Notes under the pieces: model-generated
Database searches by the model: none
Seen by the model: the letters and a program-made list of their open reading frames with translations, nothing else
Told to the model about the DNA's origin: nothing
Position numbers and translations under genes: made by a program
Shown here: piece after piece, positions 1 to 8,487 of the stretch
How positions within the stretch are numbered: the first letter of the stretch is position 1
How the letters are laid out: every line of letters begins with the position of its first letter
Assembly: GCA_035559235.1 (NCBI GenBank)
Contig: DATMBM010000016.1
Location: 28,431-92,430 of the forward strand
Reading direction: 5' to 3'
DNA length: 64,000 nucleotides
From: Minisyncoccota bacterium
GTDB lineage: Bacteria; Patescibacteriota; Minisyncoccia; Phycocordibacterales; UBA2100

Positions 1-361
1 ATTTGAGCGCTACCTTGCCGCCTGCTTCTTCGATCTTCTTCTTGAGCGCTTCCGCGTCCTCCTTCTTCATGTCTTCCTTGAGGACCTTCGGTGCGCCGTC
101 GACGAAGGCCTTCGCCTCGGCGAGACCGAGGTTGAGCGCCTCCTTCACGACCTTGATGACGGCAACCTTCTGGTCGCCTGCCGCGGTAAGTTCGACCGTA
201 AAGGTCGATTTCTCTTCCGCCGCCGCGCCGCCGGCTCCCGGAGCCGCAACGGCAACTGCCGCTGCCGAAACGCCCCACTTTTCTTCGATCGCCTTCACGA
301 GCGTGTTGAGCTCGAGGACGGTCATCTTTTCGACTGCTTCGATGATTTGTTCCTGTGTCAT
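1..361 (-). CDS. rplL: 50S ribosomal protein L7/L12, 3'-partial at the window edge (start ATG = revcomp of 359-361). Translation [31 protein letters not shown]...[13 protein letters not shown]
   Basis: Manual reverse-complement translation of 1-361 gives a classic L7/L12 sequence (N-terminal dimerisation helix, Ala/Gly hinge, C-terminal [25 protein letters not shown]). It lies 21 bp downstream of rplJ on the same strand. ORF 3..647(+) is its antisense shadow. Confidence 0.9.
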
Positions 362-382
362 AGGTGTGGTGTTGATGGGTAA

Positions 383-892
383 TTATTGCGTTTTTGTCTT
401 CGCGACTTCGCTGAGCGCGATCGCAAAGCGCTGCATCGGGCTGTTCAAGACATTCGCGAACATACCGCGAAGTGTATCCATCGGAGGCACGGTCGCGATT
501 TCAAGCATCGAACCCTTGCCGACGAGGATGCCTTCGAAGATGCCGCCGAGGATCGAGAGCTTCTCTTCCTTGTTGGGTCCGAGGAATTTCTTCCCGTACT
601 CGTGCATCATGCGCGCCGGCGCCGTGGCATCATCGCCGCCGCCATAGGCGATTGCGATTTCTCCTTCCATCGGCACGTCCTCGGTCTTGTGGCCGAGCGC
701 TTCGAGCGCGCGCTTGATGAGCGTCTTCTTCGCAACGGTGTATTTTACGCCCGCGTTTTTGAGTTCGCGCCGCATTTCCGTTTCCTCCCTGATGTTTACC
801 CCCTTGAAATGGACGATGACCGTCGAGACGGAATTCGCGAAGGCGTCTTCAAGCTTTTTTACCAGCTCGATTTTCTGCTGTTTCGTCTGCAT
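383..892 (-). CDS. rplJ: 50S ribosomal protein L10
   Basis: The 169-aa translation (MQTKQQKIELVKKLEDAF...VKYTVAKKTLIKRALE...) matches the L10 family and sits immediately upstream of rplL. Confidence 0.9.
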   Translation of the reverse strand: MQTKQQKIELVKKLEDAFANSVSTVIVHFKGVNIREETEMRRELKNAGVKYTVAKKTLIKRALEALGHKTEDVPMEGEIAIAYGGGDDATAPARMMHEYGKKFLGPNKEEKLSILGGIFEGILVGKGSMLEIATVPPMDTLRGMFANVLNSPMQRFAIALSEVAKTKTQ

Positions 893-1039
893 AGTCTCTT
901 CTGAGCTATGCGAATAATATAAGGGCGAGTTGTCGACCTCGGCGGGCTTGCCCGTCTGACGCGAAGCATCAGGAGGGACTTACGTTTGTGAGCGCGTGCT
1001 CACCCGCTGTCTCTGGCCCTTAAGCGGCATAGTACCGTA

Positions 1040-1081
1040 CAAAATGGAAAAAGCAAGGCGGGAGCGCGTACGCGCTCCCGC
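1040..1081 (-). terminator. GC-rich perfect hairpin (gcgggagcgcg-ta-cgcgctcccgc) followed on the minus strand by a U-run; a terminator or attenuator-like element upstream of rplJ
   Basis: An 11-bp perfect stem at 1058-1081. The plus-strand A-run at 1044-1052 becomes a U-tract after the hairpin on the minus strand. It lies in the ~800-bp gap upstream of rplJ. Confidence 0.45.
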
Positions 1082-1434
1082 ACTCTTCCTACCGCATCTC
1101 GTCAAGTTCATCGAGCAGCGCGTGCGCGTATGTGAGGCTTTCTTCGTTTGCATCAAGCCGCTCCTTGATTGCTCCATGATCCATCTGAAGGTTTCGTGCC
1201 TCAAGGCGGAGTATCCGGACGCGCGCGCGGCGCCGGTCTATTTTTCCGCGGATGCCCGCATGCTTCCATCCTTTTGGGGGAAGTTTCAACCACGTACGCA
1301 GCCGCAATGCACCGACAAGCGTTGCAAGCTGCAGCTCAACGGCTGCAAGCCGCGCTGCAAAATGCACGATTCCCAACCACACGATGCCCTCCTCTGGTTG
1401 CCGGCTCGCATCCTGCCACTGGCCGCAAACTGAG

Positions 1435-1626
1435 TCAATCGAAGATTCGCTCCCACCAGGGCTCGCCTTCGTCACCCACCATCGCCCGAAACGCGGCAGC
1501 GGTCTGCTCTTCTTTTTGTTGTTCCATCTCAATCGTCGCGACGGCATAGGTGAGCCCGAGCCCGACGCCGATAAAGACGGTGAATCCGAGTACGAATCGG
1601 AAAAACGAATTAAGCGACCGCTGCAT
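1435..1626 (-). CDS. hypothetical small membrane protein (63 aa, one TM helix)
   Basis: ORF with a hydrophobic TM segment (FFRFVLGFTVFIGVGLGLTYAVATI) followed by a charged tail. No recognisable family. Confidence 0.3.
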   Translation of the reverse strand: MQRSLNSFFRFVLGFTVFIGVGLGLTYAVATIEMEQQKEEQTAAAFRAMVGDEGEPWWERIFD

Positions 1627-1689
1627 ATTTCACTGACAGTATAGCGCACAAAAGAAGTCGCCACGGCCTTTGGCCGTGGCGGCGGAAAA

Positions 1690-2166
1690 TCAGATATTGA
1701 ACTCGTCGAGGATGTCGGCCATCGTATGCCGCGATTGCAACCCGACATTAGCCCAATTCCAGCCGTGCTGAAATCTTCGATGCGATCGGTCAGGGCGGCC
1801 GTACTCGCTAATCCGTATGCGGATGTCCCCGACGGTTCGCATATTTGCCCAGGGCAGTCCCTCGATAAGTCGTGAGAACACCCCGTGTCGCTTTTGCGTT
1901 TTTTCGTAGTTTGGGTGACGCTCCTTAAATTTCGCGATCAGTTCTGCGACCGAGGTAGTGTCGGGAATGGTTTCTGCATCGGGCGCTTCACCATCGCCTC
2001 CAACGAGCGTCCGGAGACGATCCCGCACGCATCCAGCGTCCGCAATGATGCGATTCATCGTTCTGATCATGTCTTGGATACTCTCTTGCTTCTTGGGCAT
2101 CGAGCTCCTCCAGCGCAAGTGCTCCTGCAAACCTATATCATTCGCGCCCGCTTCGCAAACATTCAT
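1690..2166 (-). CDS. hypothetical protein (158 aa from the internal Met MNVCEAG...); last gene of the hydrolase cassette
   Basis: The long ORF 1690..2409 overlaps the upstream membrane-protein gene. The internal start at 2166 overlaps the upstream stop by a few bases. No family recognised. Confidence 0.4.
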   Translation of the reverse strand: MNVCEAGANDIGLQEHLRWRSSMPKKQESIQDMIRTMNRIIADAGCVRDRLRTLVGGDGEAPDAETIPDTTSVAELIAKFKERHPNYEKTQKRHGVFSRLIEGLPWANMRTVGDIRIRISEYGRPDRSHRRFQHGWNWANVGLQSRHTMADILDEFNI

Positions 2167-2555
2167 GAAATCCGCCGCATGAGTGAGGGTGCCGATTTTT
2201 TGAGGATATTGTTGACGAGGGTGCCTAGGAACCAGGCGATGACGCCGAGAATCACCGGAAAATAAATGTGGGTAGCATCGAAAACAATTTCGAAAAGAAT
2301 GGCAGGACAAAGCGCGACGATATTCCACAACCAAATATTTTTCCCGCCAACGGAATGCATTAAGAAAGTGACCAGGAAGATTAATGTAATGGGTAGACCT
2401 AAGATCCATTCGATCGTTCCTGGCGCCCCAATAAAATTACCGCCTGTAGCGTGGGGGAATAGAGATACGTACAGAGCCCCGAGAAGTTGTGCAAATAGGT
2501 ACGTGAGAGCGTACGCAGACGCAATAACCAATATCCTTAGTGTGGCGATACTCAT
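2163..2555 (-). CDS. hypothetical polytopic membrane protein (130 aa, ~4 TM)
   Basis: Hydrophobic throughout (LRILVIASAYALTYLFAQLLGALYV..., ...VILGVIAWFLGTLV). It is tightly packed (10 bp) downstream of the giant hydrolase gene. Confidence 0.55.
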   Translation of the reverse strand: MSIATLRILVIASAYALTYLFAQLLGALYVSLFPHATGGNFIGAPGTIEWILGLPITLIFLVTFLMHSVGGKNIWLWNIVALCPAILFEIVFDATHIYFPVILGVIAWFLGTLVNNILKKSAPSLMRRIS

Positions 2556-2565
2556 AGTCGCAGAG

Positions 2566-5388
2566 CTAATTACTAATTAACCATAAAACATCCTCCTTTA
2601 ATATCTGATACGCTTGCTCACTTAAGCCTTTTCCTCGTTGCTTATTCAACTCGATAATCACTGCACCAGCAAGAATCTTATCCACTACTTTCTGCAACTT
2701 CTCCCCCTTTGGCTTACCATCGGTCTTCTTTTCGATAACCCGTGAGATCTTTACGGCTGCGGTGAATTTCTTAACGATGTTGTCTCGTACCTTTTTCGTC
2801 ATCCAGCCGAGCGAATATGCTCTATCGATATCTGAAAGCGTACTTTCGACGGTCGCCACCACACGAAAGTGCTTGACCGACGTTGTTGCATTGCCCACAT
2901 TGTCCGTTGACGATGCGACAAGCGTATACTCTCCCAGCTTTTTGAAGAACAGATCGATCGTACCTTGATTGGGTACTGTCGTCGTTCCTAAGCGCGCCAC
3001 AAGCTCATAAACCCCGGATTCGTCGCTCGCCGAAATATCGATCGGCAGCTGGTCGGAGCGCGGATAGTCTTTTGTCTCGGGTGAATCAATCGAAATTATG
3101 GGTGGATCAGTATCCACGGGCATCACTTCCAGCTTCTCTGGAGTTGCGTTATTGATTGAAACCTGTAACTCAGTGATAAGTCCAGGTGCCGTATTTCCGG
3201 TAAACGAGGCCTCAATCATTTCATCTTGGCTGATATAGTTCGTCTCGACGGTGTAGGAGCCGCTATCGGTCCCCTGCGTGATAACTTTGTATTCGCCATC
3301 GAGAGGGTTGAGGATGGTGATAAATTCCGTATTGGTGTTAAAGCCAGTATAAAACGCGTCCGGTATTTGATTGATTGCCTGGCCGTTTTCTTTACCGATT
3401 TTTTTGCCGTCAGGAGCGACCACGAGCAGGTCGGCGGGTGAAAGTATTTTGACGTTCAATAATTTAGCTGTAAGCGAATCGTGTTCGTGCGAGAGGAATC
3501 CGGCGACTTGTCCCGTTAAGACGAAATAGACGTCGCCTTGTGCCTCAGTAGGTAGCGCGTTATGCGAAAATGCAGTTGTGAGCAGATTTAAATCAACAAA
3601 TGATGCACTCGGCAACGGAACTGTGTTGTCACCCTCGCCGCGCACCAAACCATGGTCTCCGATAAAAGAATAATAATTCTCTGGATAACCATGTGGCCAC
3701 AACGGAGCGTATTCGCTTGAATCAGTTGCTAGTATCCCAACAATTGTCTGCCTCTGCGAAGTATTACCAATGACACTGTGGATACTAACCCCAACGTTTA
3801 TCAAGTCTTCTATGCGGTCATTTAAATTTTCTAGGAAGGGATTGGTCGGGTAATTCATCGGATAATTTCTAAGCTGATCAGAGTCGAAAATGTATGCGTA
3901 GACAGGAAGAAGCTCCTGCACAGAGGGAATCGGTCCAAATTGAATATACGAGAAAAGGTTGTCGTAACCATTTTCGTACGCTTCGTGTTCCAAGATGAGT
4001 TCGAGAATCTTTCCCAAGACATCTCCCGTTACAGCAAATTCCCCTCCCTCCCACATCAAGTACGCTTTTGGAGCTCCAAGATGAGGCGTGCCGAGGAAGA
4101 TGAGCTGGTCAACATCATCTTCGTATGCGTCGGATTGGATATACTGCCGCGCGACGAGCCCGCCCATCGAATGGGCAACCAGGTCAACCTTGTTGCATTC
4201 ACAGATTTCCTTTACCTGGTCAATCTTCTCTTTGAGCAGGACTGCGGTCTCGACATTCGATTTGCGCCAATTGTAAGGAAACGTGAACAAATCAACTCCA
4301 GGCGTATAGTGGTTTATATCCAGTGTCGCGATAAGGTCGTCGTACGTATGCAAAATCGGGTCGATCACCCATTCTCCATCGCTATTCCGCTCCGAGCCAA
4401 GAATGCCCGGAATGATAATGACGGGGTCAGGTGCGGAACGTTCCGCCTCAATTGTCGGAGGAAAGGGGGTCGTCCGCACGGTCGACGTGTTTCCCACGAC
4501 GGTGCCATGGAAGGACACAAACGCGGCATCGGCCGGGATCGTGCCGTTGCACGCAGTGCATTGAATCGGTACGTCGCTTTCGTCATCCCAGAGTGTCCAT
4601 TCGGTAGGAGACGTCATGCGGAATGAATAGTATCGGATGTGCGGCGTAATGGCGGTTGCAGTGACTAGCGTGTTGTAGTTGGGGACGACAAATCCACACG
4701 TCTCGTCAGGAGTTATGACGGCAGAGCGGAAGAGCCGACCGTCGTTGAACGGGACCTTGAGACGCAGATGGACGCGGAGCAGTCCGTCAACGTATTCCGC
4801 GCGTTCGTAGGAATCGAAGAAATAACCGTCTGCTGCGATTGAAGGGCAGGATTCGTGTTTTTCCACCTGATTCTCTAACTGCGGCGGTTCGCCGCCATGC
4901 TCAAACATTCGCACGGTGCGCGATTCGAATCGGGAACCAAACCCTCCCGAATACTGTCCCCTAAATTTGATGCGCGTGTATGAAGGATACTTCGGTATTT
5001 CCAGGCTTGTTACCAGCGCTTCATTTTGATCGTCCCACACTTCAAGTTGGGTCGGCGAGGCGAGGCGAATACTCCAGTGGGTGACTCCAGAAGGCAGCTG
5101 GAAGGGATCTGACGTTGGTACGCTATTCACCGCGAGCGTGCATTCGTCATCATATGGGAGCCACTGAATTCGAAAAGGACCTCCCCCGGATGCAAAAATC
5201 GGATCGTTTCGGAAATGGTAGATTAAATTTCCGTCGGGCGAATACTCCACACTCTCGTAGTTGGTGAAGAAAGTTCCTTCTGCAGTAAGCGCAGACAAGC
5301 CGCAGGGCTCCGTGAGCGCACTCGTGGTTGGCGCAAGGCTGAACGATAGCGCGCAAATCACCAATACGACACTTTTCCGAAATCTCAT
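2566..5388 (-). CDS. giant secreted alpha/beta-hydrolase (lipase/esterase-like) with flanking beta-rich, Ig-like regions (940 aa)
   Basis: N-terminal signal peptide (MRFRKSVVLVICALSFSLAPTTSA). GxSxG nucleophile elbow in a DLVAHSMGGLVARQYIQS context, typical of class-2 lipase / PGAP1-like / LCAT-like hydrolases. Long beta-rich flanks. AT-richer C-terminal helical tail. Confidence 0.8.
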   Translation of the reverse strand: MRFRKSVVLVICALSFSLAPTTSALTEPCGLSALTAEGTFFTNYESVEYSPDGNLIYHFRNDPIFASGGGPFRIQWLPYDDECTLAVNSVPTSDPFQLPSGVTHWSIRLASPTQLEVWDDQNEALVTSLEIPKYPSYTRIKFRGQYSGGFGSRFESRTVRMFEHGGEPPQLENQVEKHESCPSIAADGYFFDSYERAEYVDGLLRVHLRLKVPFNDGRLFRSAVITPDETCGFVVPNYNTLVTATAITPHIRYYSFRMTSPTEWTLWDDESDVPIQCTACNGTIPADAAFVSFHGTVVGNTSTVRTTPFPPTIEAERSAPDPVIIIPGILGSERNSDGEWVIDPILHTYDDLIATLDINHYTPGVDLFTFPYNWRKSNVETAVLLKEKIDQVKEICECNKVDLVAHSMGGLVARQYIQSDAYEDDVDQLIFLGTPHLGAPKAYLMWEGGEFAVTGDVLGKILELILEHEAYENGYDNLFSYIQFGPIPSVQELLPVYAYIFDSDQLRNYPMNYPTNPFLENLNDRIEDLINVGVSIHSVIGNTSQRQTIVGILATDSSEYAPLWPHGYPENYYSFIGDHGLVRGEGDNTVPLPSASFVDLNLLTTAFSHNALPTEAQGDVYFVLTGQVAGFLSHEHDSLTAKLLNVKILSPADLLVVAPDGKKIGKENGQAINQIPDAFYTGFNTNTEFITILNPLDGEYKVITQGTDSGSYTVETNYISQDEMIEASFTGNTAPGLITELQVSINNATPEKLEVMPVDTDPPIISIDSPETKDYPRSDQLPIDISASDESGVYELVARLGTTTVPNQGTIDLFFKKLGEYTLVASSTDNVGNATTSVKHFRVVATVESTLSDIDRAYSLGWMTKKVRDNIVKKFTAAVKISRVIEKKTDGKPKGEKLQKVVDKILAGAVIIELNKQRGKGLSEQAYQILKEDVLWLISN

Positions 5389-5462
5389 GCGGCAAGTATC
5401 TACTCAACCTTGTGAAGGACAAGTCGGGAGTGCACGAAAATGTGCATAACTGACAAATCAGA

Positions 5463-5502
5463 ATGTATCACTTTCTATACCATGGTATAGAAAGTGATAC
5501 AT
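5463..5502. promoter_or_regulatory. 40-bp perfect palindrome (atgtatcactttctatacc|atggtatagaaagtgatacat) in the promoter region of the hydrolase gene; candidate operator
   Basis: Read directly: both 20-nt arms are exact reverse complements, centred on CCATGG. It sits 75 bp upstream of the hydrolase start (5388) and 30 bp downstream of the regulator stop. A 20/24-matching half-site recurs at 6124-6147, overlapping the regulator start codon. Confidence 0.55.
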
Positions 5503-5531
5503 GGGTTCACATTCCACGATTCCTATCGCTC

Positions 5532-6128
5532 TCAAATACTGAAGCGCTTGCGTAACACTCGATCGCTGCCAAGTGAGTCCGCAACAACGAGGCGCAGCTC
5601 CTCGTCAGAAAGCGAAAAAGCGTCTCGTAGCACGCCAACCTGTTCAGAACAATCGAATGGATATATCCAGACGCTTTTCTGTAACATGATCGCCCCGAGG
5701 CGTCGTATCAAACTCCTGAACGCGTTCCGTTTCGCGGTCTCGCCGGTCGGGATATCAAATAAAATAATCCGCCACTTGCCGTCCCAAACGTCAGGCCGAA
5801 CCATCGGTCGGAGAAGGATGCGCCGCGCAACCAAGCTTCGGGCACGCGCTCGTCCGTGTGACGTCATCTCGATTCGCATTCCGCGCTTTGTCGATCGTTT
5901 TTTTACATACCCTTTGCGAAGTAAATATTGGAACGACTGCTGTACCTTTCTCTTGCGATCTCGATCCTCCGCTTTGAACACGAAACCAACCCCGGCCAGT
6001 GCAATAAAAAGAGTCGGCGCAAGAGTTAAAGCAGCGGCAACGCCTCCTGCAACAAACAGTGCCTCTAGTATTCCATGTGGCGTGTCTTCAAAAAGCATCG
6101 GCTCGGGATGTTTAGTTTTTTGAACCAT
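5532..6128 (-). CDS. membrane-anchored putative transcriptional regulator: N-terminal TM helix, winged-HTH-like basic region, C-terminal Cas2-fold / PaaX-C-like domain
   Basis: TM segment GILEALFVAGGVAAALTLAPTLFIALAGVGFVF, then a basic wHTH-like stretch. The C-terminal WDGKWRIILFDIPTGETAKRNAFRSLIRRLGAIMLQKSVWIYP has the beta-alpha-beta pattern of Cas2 and the PaaX C-terminal domain. The start codon lies inside a CCATGG half-operator. Confidence 0.55.
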   Translation of the reverse strand: MVQKTKHPEPMLFEDTPHGILEALFVAGGVAAALTLAPTLFIALAGVGFVFKAEDRDRKRKVQQSFQYLLRKGYVKKRSTKRGMRIEMTSHGRARARSLVARRILLRPMVRPDVWDGKWRIILFDIPTGETAKRNAFRSLIRRLGAIMLQKSVWIYPFDCSEQVGVLRDAFSLSDEELRLVVADSLGSDRVLRKRFSI

Positions 6129-6147
6129 GGTATAGATAATAATACAT
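6124..6147. promoter_or_regulatory. half-site (accatggtatagataataatacat) matching the right arm of the 40-bp palindrome; candidate autoregulatory operator over the regulator start codon
   Basis: 20 of 24 positions match the palindrome arm accatggtatagaaagtgatacat. It overlaps the ATG of the regulator gene (6126-6128 on the minus strand). Confidence 0.4.
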
Positions 6148-6166
6148 GAAGAAAACGGTGTAATAC

Positions 6167-6226
6167 AAAAACTCCCCGTACGGGGAGTTTTTGGTAACGC
6201 ACAAAGCCCCCTTTCGGGGGCTTTGT
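6167..6226 (-). terminator. two tandem hairpins between the PG-binding-protein gene and the regulator gene
   Basis: Hairpin 1 at 6167-6192 is aaaaa-ctcccc-gta-cggggag-ttttt, with A/T runs on both sides, so it could terminate in either direction. Hairpin 2 at 6200-6226 is cacaaagcccc-ctttc-ggggctttgtg. Both lie just downstream of the stop of the 6275..8308 gene. Confidence 0.6.
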
Positions 6227-6274
6227 GCTGCTTACGTAGAGCCTAGGTGCTACGAAGCATGTCGATCAAGAACG

Positions 6275-8308
6275 TTAGTTGTTGATCGTGTTGAACGACG
6301 TGCGGAAATCTTCTTCCGGAGTGGCGTACACAACAGATTCCGGTGTTGCGTCGTCTGCCGTCGAGTGACCGACAGCGACGAGTTGGACACGGTACTGTTG
6401 GTTGCCAGTGAACGACGCGTCCGGATTGAAGGACGCTGTGAGCACGAAGTCTGCCGAAGCGCCGCCGCTGATGCGAACGGAGTTCGTGAGTTCCGTACCA
6501 CCCGACACGCGAGTGAGCGCCGATCCAATCGGAGACGTAGTCGCCGTGAGGCTGCCATTCTCGATGAAGAAGTTGACGCCCTCGATCTGCGACGCTGTCA
6601 AGCCTGACACGCTTGTCGTTGCAAGCGTTGTGAGCGGAATGTACACGTCGTTCGAACCAAAGTTCGTAATGCGAAGTGTCATCTTGAACTCACCCGAGCT
6701 GTTCGCCGGAGTGTCGTTCTGCGCAGGCGTGAAGCTTTCACCGACCTTCGTAACCTGGATACCCTCCGAGAAGAGCGTCTGGGTGTAGGTCGTCACTGAA
6801 CCAGCGCGTTCAGTGACCGACTTGCCGTCTGATGTCGCGCGAGCATTAATGTCGCCGACAGACGGAGACGTCGATGCGGTGATGGTGTCACCTTGGTCGA
6901 ACGCAGTGCCCACGCCGCTGCCCGTTGCGATGGAGTTGACCTTCGCGACGATGCGGTAAGTCTGCGTCGAGCCAGATGAGAGGTTTTCGATGTCATCCAA
7001 GACGAAGTTGAGGATCTGGCTTCCCGCCGTTGCGGTGCTTGCCGCAAGTTCGGCGATACGAGTGCTCCCCCTCATGAGGAAGAAGGTCTGCACCATGTCG
7101 CTCACCTGGTCAACACCTGTAAGGGTCGTCGAAGCTGTGAGGCGATCGAAGTACATGTCCGCGTTTTCCGCTTTGAGCGTGAACTCTGCAAGCGTAACTT
7201 CCGTGGTGTTGGACTCGTTAACCTTCACGTTGCCTGACTTCGGATTGCCCGAACCTTCAGCCATACGGAGTTTGACGTCCGTAGCTGACGAAGAACGGTT
7301 GACGTACACGCCAGCACCGGTCGTGGCCGCGGTTGCGCCACCGTTGTTAACCGTCGTATTCGGATCTTCGAAGAGAACGGCACCGGAGGCATCCGTGTAG
7401 CGAACCTGCGTAACCTGGACCAACCAGTCGTTCGTGCTGCCGATATCATCCGAGTCGAGGGACGAATTCGCCGTCGCGCCGACATGGAAGGTAACCTTGT
7501 TGGCCGAACCCATACGAACAATCTGATCAACCGGGATAGATGCAGAGTAGACACCTGCTGCATCGCGGGTGAAGGACGATGCCGGCATGGAGCCGATCTT
7601 CGTGCCGTTTGCCCAGATGCTCACTTCACTGAAGTATGCCGCAAGGGTGTCAGAAGAAGCTGCTGATGCGCCGCTGTCTTTGTCGAAGCGGACGCGGATG
7701 TTCGTGACGCGGAGGTCGGAGCCGGAAGCTTCAACCTTCATGCCGACGATCTTTTCTGTCTGGCCGGAGAGAACCTCATCTTCCACGTCTTCAGACGTTG
7801 AAGTGATGGTTGCTGTGCCAGCCGTACCGTTCAAGCCCTGGTTACCACCTGGGGCTGTCGGAGTCGACGGAGACGAAGCGCATACCGATGCGACTTTCGC
7901 GCGAGTGATCGGACCCCAGTAGCCCGCTGCCGGCGAGACGCCGTTTGCAGCCTGCCACTTGGCGACCGCCGCACGCGTAAGTGCGCCGAAGTACGACGTC
8001 TCATTGCCCGGAGAGCCCGGACCCGAAGCGGCGACCTGTGCGCCGTGACTGTTAAGGAATTTCTGGATTTGCATGACCTCACCGCCGTTGTCGCCCATTT
8101 GGTGAGTCATCGTGAAGGCATAGCAGCCTGAGCCTGAGCTGGACGAACCGCCCTGGAGCGCTGCAATTTGTGCGAGAAGTGCCTGGACTTGTGCCTGAAG
8201 ATCCGAGAGCAAGTCTGCCTTTGCCGGTGTGGCAACTGCAAACGAAAGCGCAAGGACAACTGCGCAACCCACGAGCACTGTCGCAACATTCTTTGTTGCT
8301 AAACTCAT
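6275..8308 (-). CDS. secreted surface protein with a peptidoglycan-binding (PG_binding_1-like) domain and a long Ser/Thr/Gly-rich beta region
   Basis: Signal peptide from the internal Met (MSLATKNVATVLVGCAVVLALSFAVATPAKA). Coiled LQAQVQALLAQIAALQ segment. PG-binding-like segment (VMQIQKFLNSHGAQV...ALTRAAVAKWQAANGV). Then ~500 aa of low-complexity T/S/G-rich sequence. Confidence 0.7.
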   Translation of the reverse strand: MSLATKNVATVLVGCAVVLALSFAVATPAKADLLSDLQAQVQALLAQIAALQGGSSSSGSGCYAFTMTHQMGDNGGEVMQIQKFLNSHGAQVAASGPGSPGNETSYFGALTRAAVAKWQAANGVSPAAGYWGPITRAKVASVCASSPSTPTAPGGNQGLNGTAGTATITSTSEDVEDEVLSGQTEKIVGMKVEASGSDLRVTNIRVRFDKDSGASAASSDTLAAYFSEVSIWANGTKIGSMPASSFTRDAAGVYSASIPVDQIVRMGSANKVTFHVGATANSSLDSDDIGSTNDWLVQVTQVRYTDASGAVLFEDPNTTVNNGGATAATTGAGVYVNRSSSATDVKLRMAEGSGNPKSGNVKVNESNTTEVTLAEFTLKAENADMYFDRLTASTTLTGVDQVSDMVQTFFLMRGSTRIAELAASTATAGSQILNFVLDDIENLSSGSTQTYRIVAKVNSIATGSGVGTAFDQGDTITASTSPSVGDINARATSDGKSVTERAGSVTTYTQTLFSEGIQVTKVGESFTPAQNDTPANSSGEFKMTLRITNFGSNDVYIPLTTLATTSVSGLTASQIEGVNFFIENGSLTATTSPIGSALTRVSGGTELTNSVRISGGASADFVLTASFNPDASFTGNQQYRVQLVAVGHSTADDATPESVVYATPEEDFRTSFNTINN

Positions 8309-8487
8309 AGTTTGATATATGACCTTTCCCCGCGCGAAAAAGTTTTCCGCGCCGGGCGCATCTGCGGCTTTTCGACAGAACCACAGATACTTTTTGTGTG
8401 GCATCCACTTGCGTGGATACAACTAATAATTTTGCTAGCCCCGGACCCGCTTGTAAGTTACTAAAGTGGGGACGAGGGTTAGCATCG

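Follow-up and report, generated by a model that had tools for sequence, protein, structure and literature searches.

A PaaX-like regulator gene between paired dyads, and its lipase-type neighbour, in a Paceibacterota genome

The PaaX repressor of Escherichia coli recognises a long interrupted operator, TGATTC-N27-GAATCA (6-N27-6), and represses its own promoter; according to a 2022 review, no complex structure of a PaaX-type dimer on its operator has been reported (PMC9493321). Here we analyzed a smaller relative of this protein encoded in a 64-kb stretch of DNA (the window) that belongs to a 117-kb contig of a Candidatus Paceibacterota metagenome-assembled genome (Patescibacteria, or candidate phyla radiation, CPR). 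The gene of this relative, which we call the regulator (NCBI VNM40_03700), lies on the minus strand and is followed by genes for a hydrolase (VNM40_03695), a small membrane protein and a fourth protein (gene 4). The original prediction for this DNA had united the four genes into one cassette, in which a membrane-tethered regulator has dedicated control over a possibly horizontally acquired lipase module. With moderate confidence we favour a different explanation, that not one cassette but three evolutionary units meet here: an autoregulatory PaaX-type cassette, a pair formed by the lipase and the membrane protein, and an ORFan.

PaaX of E. coli W (8a39) was the best fold match of the regulator and shares with it a winged helix and a Cas2-like central domain. 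However, PaaX has about 310 amino acids (aa) and a ligand-binding PaaX_C domain, while members of the regulator family have about 190-200 aa and lack PaaX_C. The regulator further differs from PaaX by a strongly hydrophobic N-terminus, by the Asp of Cas2 strand beta1, by two dyads that bracket its gene, and by a family mainly confined to Patescibacteria. There are no paa genes near it; the neighbours code for a surface protein and the lipase here, and for tRNA synthetases, UvrB, LigA and transketolase elsewhere. The long dyad geometry of the PaaX operator is shared: in the dyad downstream of the regulator gene (O1) the outer blocks, TGTATC...GATACA, are 26 nucleotides (nt) apart, and the site occupies 38-40 base pairs (bp).

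Fold and family of the regulator

Pfam PaaX_M (PF20803) matched residues 114-187 of the regulator with 65 bits against a cut-off of 24 (6.9e-18), and the same domain was present in 80/80 homologs. PaaX_C had no match in the regulator, which ends 11 residues after PaaX_M, and the PaaX equivalog model TIGR02277 gave 21.5 bits against a cut-off of 264.55. Along the protein a hydrophobic segment (residues ~22-51) is followed by a basic linker, a winged helix (~55-105) and PaaX_M. The AlphaFold2 model, built from 30 homologs (predicted local distance difference test, pLDDT, 78.9), has a helix at 56-71, a beta-hairpin at 75-88 and a helix at 90-106, with two N-terminal helices of low confidence. Foldseek placed E. 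coli PaaX 8a39 first (E 1.2e-5, over 140 columns), then Rv0674 and then many Cas2 structures, with 3kfw also among the top matches after 8a39. Profile search against PDB matched AspA and PaaX to residues ~36-123; among PDB sequences the winged helix was matched best by AspA, the centromere-binding protein of pNOB8, at a marginal E of 1e-3. The fold assignment of the original prediction, a probable winged helix-turn-helix (wHTH) with a Cas2-like domain, holds, except that the domain is PaaX_M and not PaaX_C.

How close is the regulator to Cas2 itself? Its motif ILFDIP...QKSVW resembles the beta1/alpha1/beta2 consensus of Cas2, and the beta1 Asp of Cas2, which like VapD is a ferredoxin-fold nuclease, is kept as D125. 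The invariant residues of the family alignment were W115, D116, W119, R120, F124, D125, R134, Q150, S152, V153, P157 and C160. NCBIfam Cas2 (TIGR01573) matched residues 119-154 marginally, with 25.2 bits against a cut-off of 24.5, and PADLOC found a partial Cas2 match and a weak LmuC match in the regulator and none in the other three genes. In contrast to this likeness, the sequence match covers the first third only, and Cas2 is a stand-alone protein of ~90-110 aa encoded beside cas1 and an array, while the regulator is a fusion of 198 aa in which the domain is joined to a winged helix. The 64-kb window contained no CRISPR-like array, and no cas gene was seen among the neighbours read, although no search aimed at Cas1 was made. 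The name 'Cas2' given to family members in NCBI records is most likely a mis-annotation, and we flag it as such.

An exhaustive profile search, counted in clusters at 50% identity, gave 1,048 family members at E <= 1e-30 and 3,734 at E <= 1e-10. The proteins listed are mostly nameless, and a few are named Cas2 or PaaX, including 'CRISPR-associated endonuclease Cas2' (NCBI). PHROGs gave no match for the regulator or for the neighbouring genes of the four-gene region. Search by tblastn with the regulator found nothing in GenBank phages and PLSDB plasmids, and one weak locus with 27% identity in IMG/VR. The family was not found described in literature on PaaX together with Cas2-like proteins, on PaaX together with CPR, or on membrane-anchored factors in Patescibacteria.

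The N-terminal segment of the regulator has 29-30 uncharged residues (22-30 over the family) and a basic flank after it. Its Kyte-Doolittle maximum over 19 residues is 2.1, and the value is at least 1.6 in 26/30 members. The crude insertion energy of the segment, 0.8 kcal/mol, is like that of the helices of the 130-aa membrane protein encoded downstream and far below that of the rest of the regulator. For the hydrophobic N-terminus that the original prediction had taken for a membrane tether, anchoring of the protein is plausible. Several points speak against such an anchor: the argument for it is one of hydropathy; the segment is marginally hydrophobic in distant family members (2.6-5 kcal/mol); AlphaFold2 confidence over it is low; and, judging by comparison with the E. 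coli PaaX sequence, it sits at helices 1-2 of the PaaX winged helix. In layout the regulator may be likened to ToxR/CadC-like one-component factors, but it has only ~20 residues before the hydrophobic segment and no extracytoplasmic sensor domain. As PaaX_C is absent too, any signal would have to reach the protein by way of its membrane segment.

Paired dyads around the regulator gene

The 143-nt spacer between regulator and hydrolase contains a perfect 40-nt palindrome, O1, which begins 29 nt past the regulator stop codon and lies ~95 nt upstream of the hydrolase ATG (Table 1). It is the only dyad in the window with 18/18 symmetric positions, and it has no Rfam match. A degenerate copy, O2, is centred on the CCATGG that holds the ATG of the regulator. 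The left arm of O2 contains the TATTAT -10 box; the right arm lies inside the coding sequence (MVQKTKH) and is degenerate, leaving O2 71% self-complementary. The two dyads have 74% identity over 46 nt, and no further copies besides them were found in the window. The original prediction had passed over both palindromes. A dyad centred on the start codon is found also in relatives L002, L082, L083, L085, L163, L165 and L167; in such close relatives both copies are present and the downstream one is more symmetric. O1 is the full cognate dyad predicted for the regulator.

Is this arrangement general in the family? We used 80 regulator loci taken from metagenomes (like the hydrolase loci, numbered with the prefix L), with usable upstream sequence for 71 genes, and scored a dyad by its count of symmetric positions (at least 13/18) in the interval from -130 to +50 around the start. 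Such a dyad was present near the start of 50/71 homologous genes, while the background rate was 7% in random windows drawn from these loci and 2.5% after shuffling. It recurred downstream in 47/50 loci, 597-733 nt further on, at a distance of -7 to +55 nt relative to the stop codon. Shuffled operators, used as a control, gave 1 match in 5 x 315 kb, and extra copies of the dyads in 315 kb of related loci numbered one. The sole locus with a third copy was L102 (283-318, 1096-1131, 1757-1792), where the regulator is preceded by an unrelated open reading frame (ORF) of 199 aa (470-1069) that likewise has a dyad on each side and is possibly a true target.

Going outward from the dyad centre, complementarity was 88-99% over positions 1-4, fell to 60-72% over positions 5-9 and rose again to 83-96% over positions 11-17. 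The core is GC[C/G]AT[G/C]GC, with the centre between A and T, and is most often CCATGG; the distal block frequently reads C[G/T]TAA. Beyond the ~38 nt of the dyad, the two copies are at once no more alike than background. This bipartite symmetry indicates a pattern of protein sites rather than a continuous stem. TATAAT-like boxes situated 5-9 nt ahead of the ATG lie within the upstream dyads or directly beside them, and a protein bound to these dyads would therefore block a leaderless promoter.

The dyads are locus-specific, with identity of 0.83 within a locus against a median of 0.44 between loci. Divergence of dyads followed that of proteins (Mantel rho 0.37, 0/2000 permutations as high), a statistic confounded by shared descent. 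By eye, and with the same confounding, the distal block varies with the residue that follows the conserved F-Y of the recognition helix: GTAA is seen with N, TAC[G/T]C with K/R and ATCTTAA with Y.

These observations are compatible with the following scheme. The regulator would dimerise through its Cas2-like PaaX_M, and its two winged helices would read the bipartite dyad, that is, the 8-bp core and the distal blocks ~14-15 bp on either side of the centre. Binding at O2, over the -10 box and the start codon, would shut off synthesis of the regulator itself. O1 would be the high-affinity site and may loop to O2, block read-through, or do both. The hydrophobic N-terminal helix probably holds the protein at the membrane, and this would confine it to sites near its own gene. 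At the present locus the regulator cassette appears to have entered a slot of variable content that directly precedes the lipase gene. O1 could here gate read-through into that gene, which would be a local effect, and control of the lipase is possible.

Against this autoregulatory scheme stand the confounding by descent mentioned above and the very similar recognition helices that are sometimes paired with different dyad arms. Binding of the regulator to the dyads is itself a prediction, which the scheme takes as given. The downstream copy is not generally a promoter operator, since the gene after it is convergent in roughly one locus out of three. At our locus the O1 centre is ~95 nt upstream of the hydrolase start, outside the normal position of a repressor.

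Other downstream neighbours are unrelated housekeeping genes, encoding arginyl-tRNA synthetase (ArgRS), UvrB, isoleucyl-tRNA synthetase (IleRS), LigA, DnaG and ribonucleotide reductase (RNR). The downstream copy is thus present whatever follows, and we assign it to the cassette rather than to any target gene; the dedicated control of the lipase module proposed by the original prediction is not supported by such a family-wide pattern. Directly downstream of the cassette a tRNA-Ser gene was seen in three unrelated loci (L090 878-964, L123 959-1047, L139 883-970). In four other loci (L091 ~6597-6700, L134, L106, L120) the downstream dyad is followed by a TATAAT box and a similar sequence resembling a small RNA (sRNA), ...GGGAGGATAGCACTCAC.... 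For the sequences after several cassettes we considered signal recognition particle (SRP) RNA, a guess for which Rfam gave no match.

The predicted lipase pair, gene 4 and their genomic context

The hydrolase matched Pfam LCAT (PF02450) with 55.1 bits against 21 and PGAP1 (PF07819) with 41.5 against 24.3, and profile matches in PDB included 4r1d, LPLA2 4x90 and Bacillus LipA. With these proteins it shares the elbow xHSMGG, then GTPHxG and an Asp in GDxTV; its Ser and Asp motifs align with those of LPLA2, where the latter reads GDGTV. The catalytic candidates S407 (4168-4170), D587 (3628-3630) and H609 (3562-3564), whose codons were checked, are invariant in 29 homologs, and the triad therefore appears complete. 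We take H609 to be the triad His because of its invariance and of the H-x-x-L/M pattern of LCAT and LPLA2. A signal-peptide protein of lipase type with AHSMGG and Ig-like flanking domains, as originally predicted, was confirmed by Pfam, AlphaFold2 and fold matches.

The hydrolase differs from LCAT and LPLA2 in its multidomain structure of 940 aa, with four beta-sandwich domains and a C-terminal domain, in matches that cover ~105-130 residues, and in its pairing with a membrane protein of four helices; its lipase activity is predicted from sequence. Two observations weaken the assignment. The profiles are covered in their first half of the alpha/beta fold (LCAT 67-177 of 392, PGAP1 6-133 of 233), and AlphaFold2 modelled the catalytic domain with low confidence. 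Fold search with the whole model returned Ig/cadherin-like beta-sandwich matches only and was uninformative on the catalytic domain. Residues ~30-160 and 185-305 appear to be repeats of a single beta-domain, and both repeats begin with a Cys, after which comes the motif ...FF.NYE/SYE..; most homologs match only residues ~310-940 and lack this N-terminal part.

The 130-aa membrane protein had no match in Pfam, NCBIfam, PADLOC or PHROGs. By profile search its homolog lies immediately downstream of the hydrolase in 28/58 loci, and its presence goes together with that of the C-terminal domain of the hydrolase (24/28 against 4/30, Fisher p = 3.6e-8, not phylogeny-corrected). It has no conserved polar residues suggesting catalysis, and a dock or shield therefore fits it better than an enzyme. 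The hydrolase is predicted to be a Sec-secreted LCAT/LPLA2/PGAP1-like lipase or phospholipase. The membrane protein would most likely dock the hydrolase C-terminal domain at the cell surface, or else protect the membrane of the producer.

Patescibacteria have no lipid synthesis of their own and are believed to obtain lipids, lysolipids among them, from neighbouring cells, by a mechanism of uptake or breakdown not identified (PMC7242380, PMC11665869). In such a lineage the lipase pair is a candidate for a device that attacks a host membrane or harvests its lipids.

GC content at third codon positions (GC3) was 0.51-0.54 in the regulator, the hydrolase core and C-terminus and the membrane-protein gene, against 0.68 +/- 0.055 in 23 other ORFs. 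In this part the AT-richer composition noted originally was confirmed; gene 4, which the same claim included, has GC3 of 0.62, near the genome norm. Low GC3 of the hydrolase and its partner recurs in 4/4 GC-rich syntenic relatives. A dip shared by relatives is of old standing in the pair and does not speak for a recent transfer, so that we rejected horizontal transfer as the cause of the low GC of the hydrolase pair and the proposed horizontal acquisition loses its support. Among 5.8 billion proteins gene 4 had no match but itself, and none of the 160 related loci contains it; it has no family match in Pfam, NCBIfam, PADLOC or PHROGs and no hydrophobic segment.

The four genes fail the test of co-conservation that the original prediction had set itself. 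Among 80 species-level hydrolase loci the regulator stands beside the hydrolase in one (1/80), that of the closest relative L002; among 80 regulator loci a hydrolase is near in one (1/80), L085, in the order hydrolase, membrane-protein gene, regulator. With gene 4 an ORFan as well, the four genes do not form a co-conserved cassette. The block of surface protein, hydrolase, membrane protein and further genes up to rplJ is syntenic in at least six related genomes, those of L002, L003, L006, L008, L012 and L019. The slot before the hydrolase (window 5389-6274, between the surface-protein gene and the hydrolase), whose inserts differ by species, holds the regulator cassette in the window and in L002. 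The same slot is empty in L003, L006 and L008, where we found GC-rich terminators only and no solo dyad; it holds an IS200/Y1-transposase-like ORF between inverted repeats in L012 and an NYN-domain ORF between direct repeats in L019.

These last two are low-GC relatives, in which a conserved element of ~100 nt follows the surface-protein gene (L012 3470-3575; L019 3425-3530 and 4300-4400). Its pattern is CTTCCCTTAAGTTAAAT.TAGTCTCTTGTGAACCGTATGTTTT.CCG..AGG..TAACATAAGGTCTGACTAA, then a GC hairpin; Rfam gave no match at gathering score, and in L019 the element is duplicated as the direct repeats around the NYN-domain ORF. IS200-type Y1 transposase genes recur near regulator and hydrolase loci (L165 367-1056, L167 10105-10737, L012 3650-4330).

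The original prediction of one operon-like module, in which a membrane-tethered regulator senses a surface or lipid signal and controls the lipase via O1, deserves weighing against these data. All the genes lie on the same strand, there is no GC-rich terminator between regulator and hydrolase, and the gap holds a perfect cognate dyad; a membrane-bound factor should act on nearby DNA; and low GC3 is common to the regulator, the hydrolase core and the membrane-protein gene. Close relatives of the regulator adjoin a hydrolase homolog in four loci with three gene orders, the closest being those of L002 (72% identity), L163 (62%) and L085 (53%). However, in L163 the regulator directly follows the hydrolase homolog, and in L085 it is downstream too. 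Adjacency is rare in both wider samples, and regulators with 56-60% identity stand between transketolase and pfkB in two Kaiserbacteria. The downstream dyad is found whatever follows it, including convergent genes and tRNA genes, while the hydrolase upstream regions of 74 other species have no dyad above AT-rich background. O1 lies outside the putative core promoter of the hydrolase, and gene 4 is an ORFan. We therefore hold a single module to be doubtful, with a modest chance left to it, and continue with three separate units.

Transcription signals and other features are given in Table 1. The four minus-strand ORFs of the original prediction are borne out by the ORF list. Their tight packing holds for the 10-nt gap from the hydrolase stop to the membrane-protein gene and for the ATGA overlap of the membrane-protein stop with the alternative gene 4 start (2166). 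It does not hold for the spacer with O1, and the likelier start of gene 4 is at 2100, an ATG with a GGAGGA Shine-Dalgarno sequence that was picked by the gene caller and leaves a 62-nt gap; NCBI annotates gene 4 in a 126-aa form. The two hairpins predicted upstream of the regulator were found. They are the terminators of the upstream surface-protein gene (715 aa, 6275-8422, stop at 6275, Pfam PG_binding_1) and form the upstream edge of the regulator cassette. The predicted terminator further downstream was confirmed as well, but the original prediction missed the one that begins 9 nt past the gene 4 stop, which is the real end of the transcription unit.

The -10 box of the regulator ends 7 nt ahead of the ATG, which suggests a leaderless mRNA with the transcription start deduced from the box. 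From its own putative promoter, missed by the consensus scan, the hydrolase transcript would, we infer, be leaderless also; relative L002 keeps the pattern (TTGTCC, 16 nt, GATAGT, 6 nt, ATG). Boxes resembling -10 elements 5-9 nt before the ATG, without Shine-Dalgarno sequence, were seen for the regulator and the hydrolase (window 6136-6128 and 5400-5388) and for many homologs, and suggest frequent leaderless mRNAs in these genomes. Rfam search of region 800-6700 at E <= 1 returned a chance sRNA match only. Downstream of gene 4, window 1435-1626 on the minus strand encodes a single-helix membrane protein of 63 aa, overlapped by a 128-aa ORF in gene calls; it is conserved in L002, L003, L006 and L008, where its spacing from the hydrolase pair differs.

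Table 1. Positions of the described features in the window and, for hydrolase domains, in the protein
Feature	Position	Strand	Remarks
Regulator gene	5532-6128	-	198-aa PaaX-like protein, DNA-binding predicted by fold
Hydrolase gene	2566-5388	-	940 aa, secreted alpha/beta hydrolase
Membrane-protein gene	2163-2555	-	130 aa, about four hydrophobic helices
Gene 4	1690-2100 (long form to 2166)	-	136-aa ORFan
O1	5463-5502	.	perfect 40-nt palindrome ATGTATCACTTTCTATACCATGGTATAGAAAGTGATACAT
O2	6108-6147	.	degenerate upstream dyad copy, 645 nt upstream of O1
GC-rich hairpins (two), A/T runs beside them	6199-6228 and 6166-6193	-	inverted-repeat search
Regulator promoter-like site	6136-6164	-	ATTACA, 17 nt, TATTAT; consensus scan
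Putative hydrolase promoter	5395-5422	-	TTGTCC, 16 nt, GATACT, 6 nt, ATG; read by eye
Intrinsic terminator	1659-1681	-	10-bp stem, 9 GC pairs, then CTTCTTTTG
Terminator further downstream	1058-1081		confirmed
Hydrolase signal peptide	residues 1-24		
Hydrolase N-terminal beta-domains	residues ~30-305		two, lineage-specific
Hydrolase catalytic domain	residues ~320-630		LCAT/PGAP1-like, elbow AHSMGG
Hydrolase beta-sandwich domains	residues ~643-845		two
Hydrolase C-terminal alpha/beta domain	residues 847-939		conserved, confident in AlphaFold2

Other explanations of the dyads and significance of the family

If the dyads are not operators, could they mark the termini of a small mobile or excisable cassette, or serve in its recombination, with the wHTH-Cas2-like protein, which retains the catalytic Asp of Cas2, as a site-specific nuclease acting on them? 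The gene is exactly bracketed, similarity of the copies stops at the dyad edges, and the four arms of a locus evolve in concert. The cassette occurs in unrelated contexts, often next to tRNA genes, and on either side of the hydrolase in different genomes; the slot that it occupies here is elsewhere empty or filled by the IS200-like or NYN-domain inserts. D125 and the Cas2-like QKSVW are invariant, and the Cas2 model passes just above its cut-off. In layout only, the palindrome-bracketed gene whose product may recognise the palindrome resembles RAYT/REP and Xer (dif-like) modules. In contrast to those modules, the copies are not dispersed, the protein lacks an HUH/Y1 or tyrosine-recombinase domain, and one of the dyads, the upstream copy, overlaps a promoter. 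A locus has two copies, with the one extra in 315 kb and none elsewhere in 64 kb, which gives no sign of proliferation, and the empty slots retain no solo dyad. Some clades have stably inherited the cassette in one place, behind ArgRS or behind transketolase. Phage and plasmid matches are lacking and the only viral-contig match is weak. Bipartite symmetry and promoter overlap fit a repressor site, and PaaX_M in true PaaX is the dimerisation domain. We consider a mobile cassette improbable.

Still less credit can be given to the palindromes as RNA hairpins, with the downstream copy acting as terminator or 3' stabiliser and the upstream resemblance being secondary. As RNA, O1 forms an 18-bp hairpin (region -48.9 kcal/mol, z = -4.5) and was flagged by the terminator scan, and downstream copies begin at or just past the stop codon. 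Mismatches in the dyads show a slight excess of G-T (69) over A-C (47), which is not strong. However, complementarity of 60-72% at positions 5-9, against 83-99% in the flanking blocks, makes a poor continuous stem. The stems are AT-rich and mostly without a U-tract, the upstream copy is in or before the promoter so that leaderless cases transcribe half of it, and a hairpin function leaves the match between the two copies unexplained; this explanation is very improbable.

That the regulator is a DNA-membrane tether or a centromere-binding protein like ParB/parS or AspA, with the N-terminal helix fixing the locus to the membrane, is hardly credible: binding sites do flank their own gene in several partition systems, the hydrophobic N-terminus is conserved and AspA is the best PDB match of the winged helix (E 1e-3), but that match is marginal, the fold of the whole protein is PaaX-like, no ParA or ParB-type partner adjoins any copy, and the overlap with -10 box and start codon is typical of repression.

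We return to the autoregulatory PaaX-type cassette as one of three units. A bolder version of it has a small chance: the wHTH-Cas2-like family may be a self-contained, membrane-held module, possibly a nuclease, whose sole targets are two locus-specific 38-bp dyads around its own gene. If this were true, such a module could be a cis-acting element that moves between intergenic slots, imposing control or a boundary on its neighbours, or could pin its locus to the membrane, and it would be no ordinary regulator of a defined regulon.

The four-gene operon story is corrected by these data. A secreted LCAT-like lipase, predicted from sequence, is kept together with a membrane partner in a core syntenic block across Paceibacterota relatives. 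The dyad-gene-dyad arrangement in 47/50 loci is a regular architecture of a family with more than a thousand clusters at 50% identity, for which we found no description, and it occurs in Patescibacteria, which have few recognisable regulators. The many pairs of protein and site in this family could reveal the way in which an operator of 38 bp is recognised by a PaaX-type dimer.

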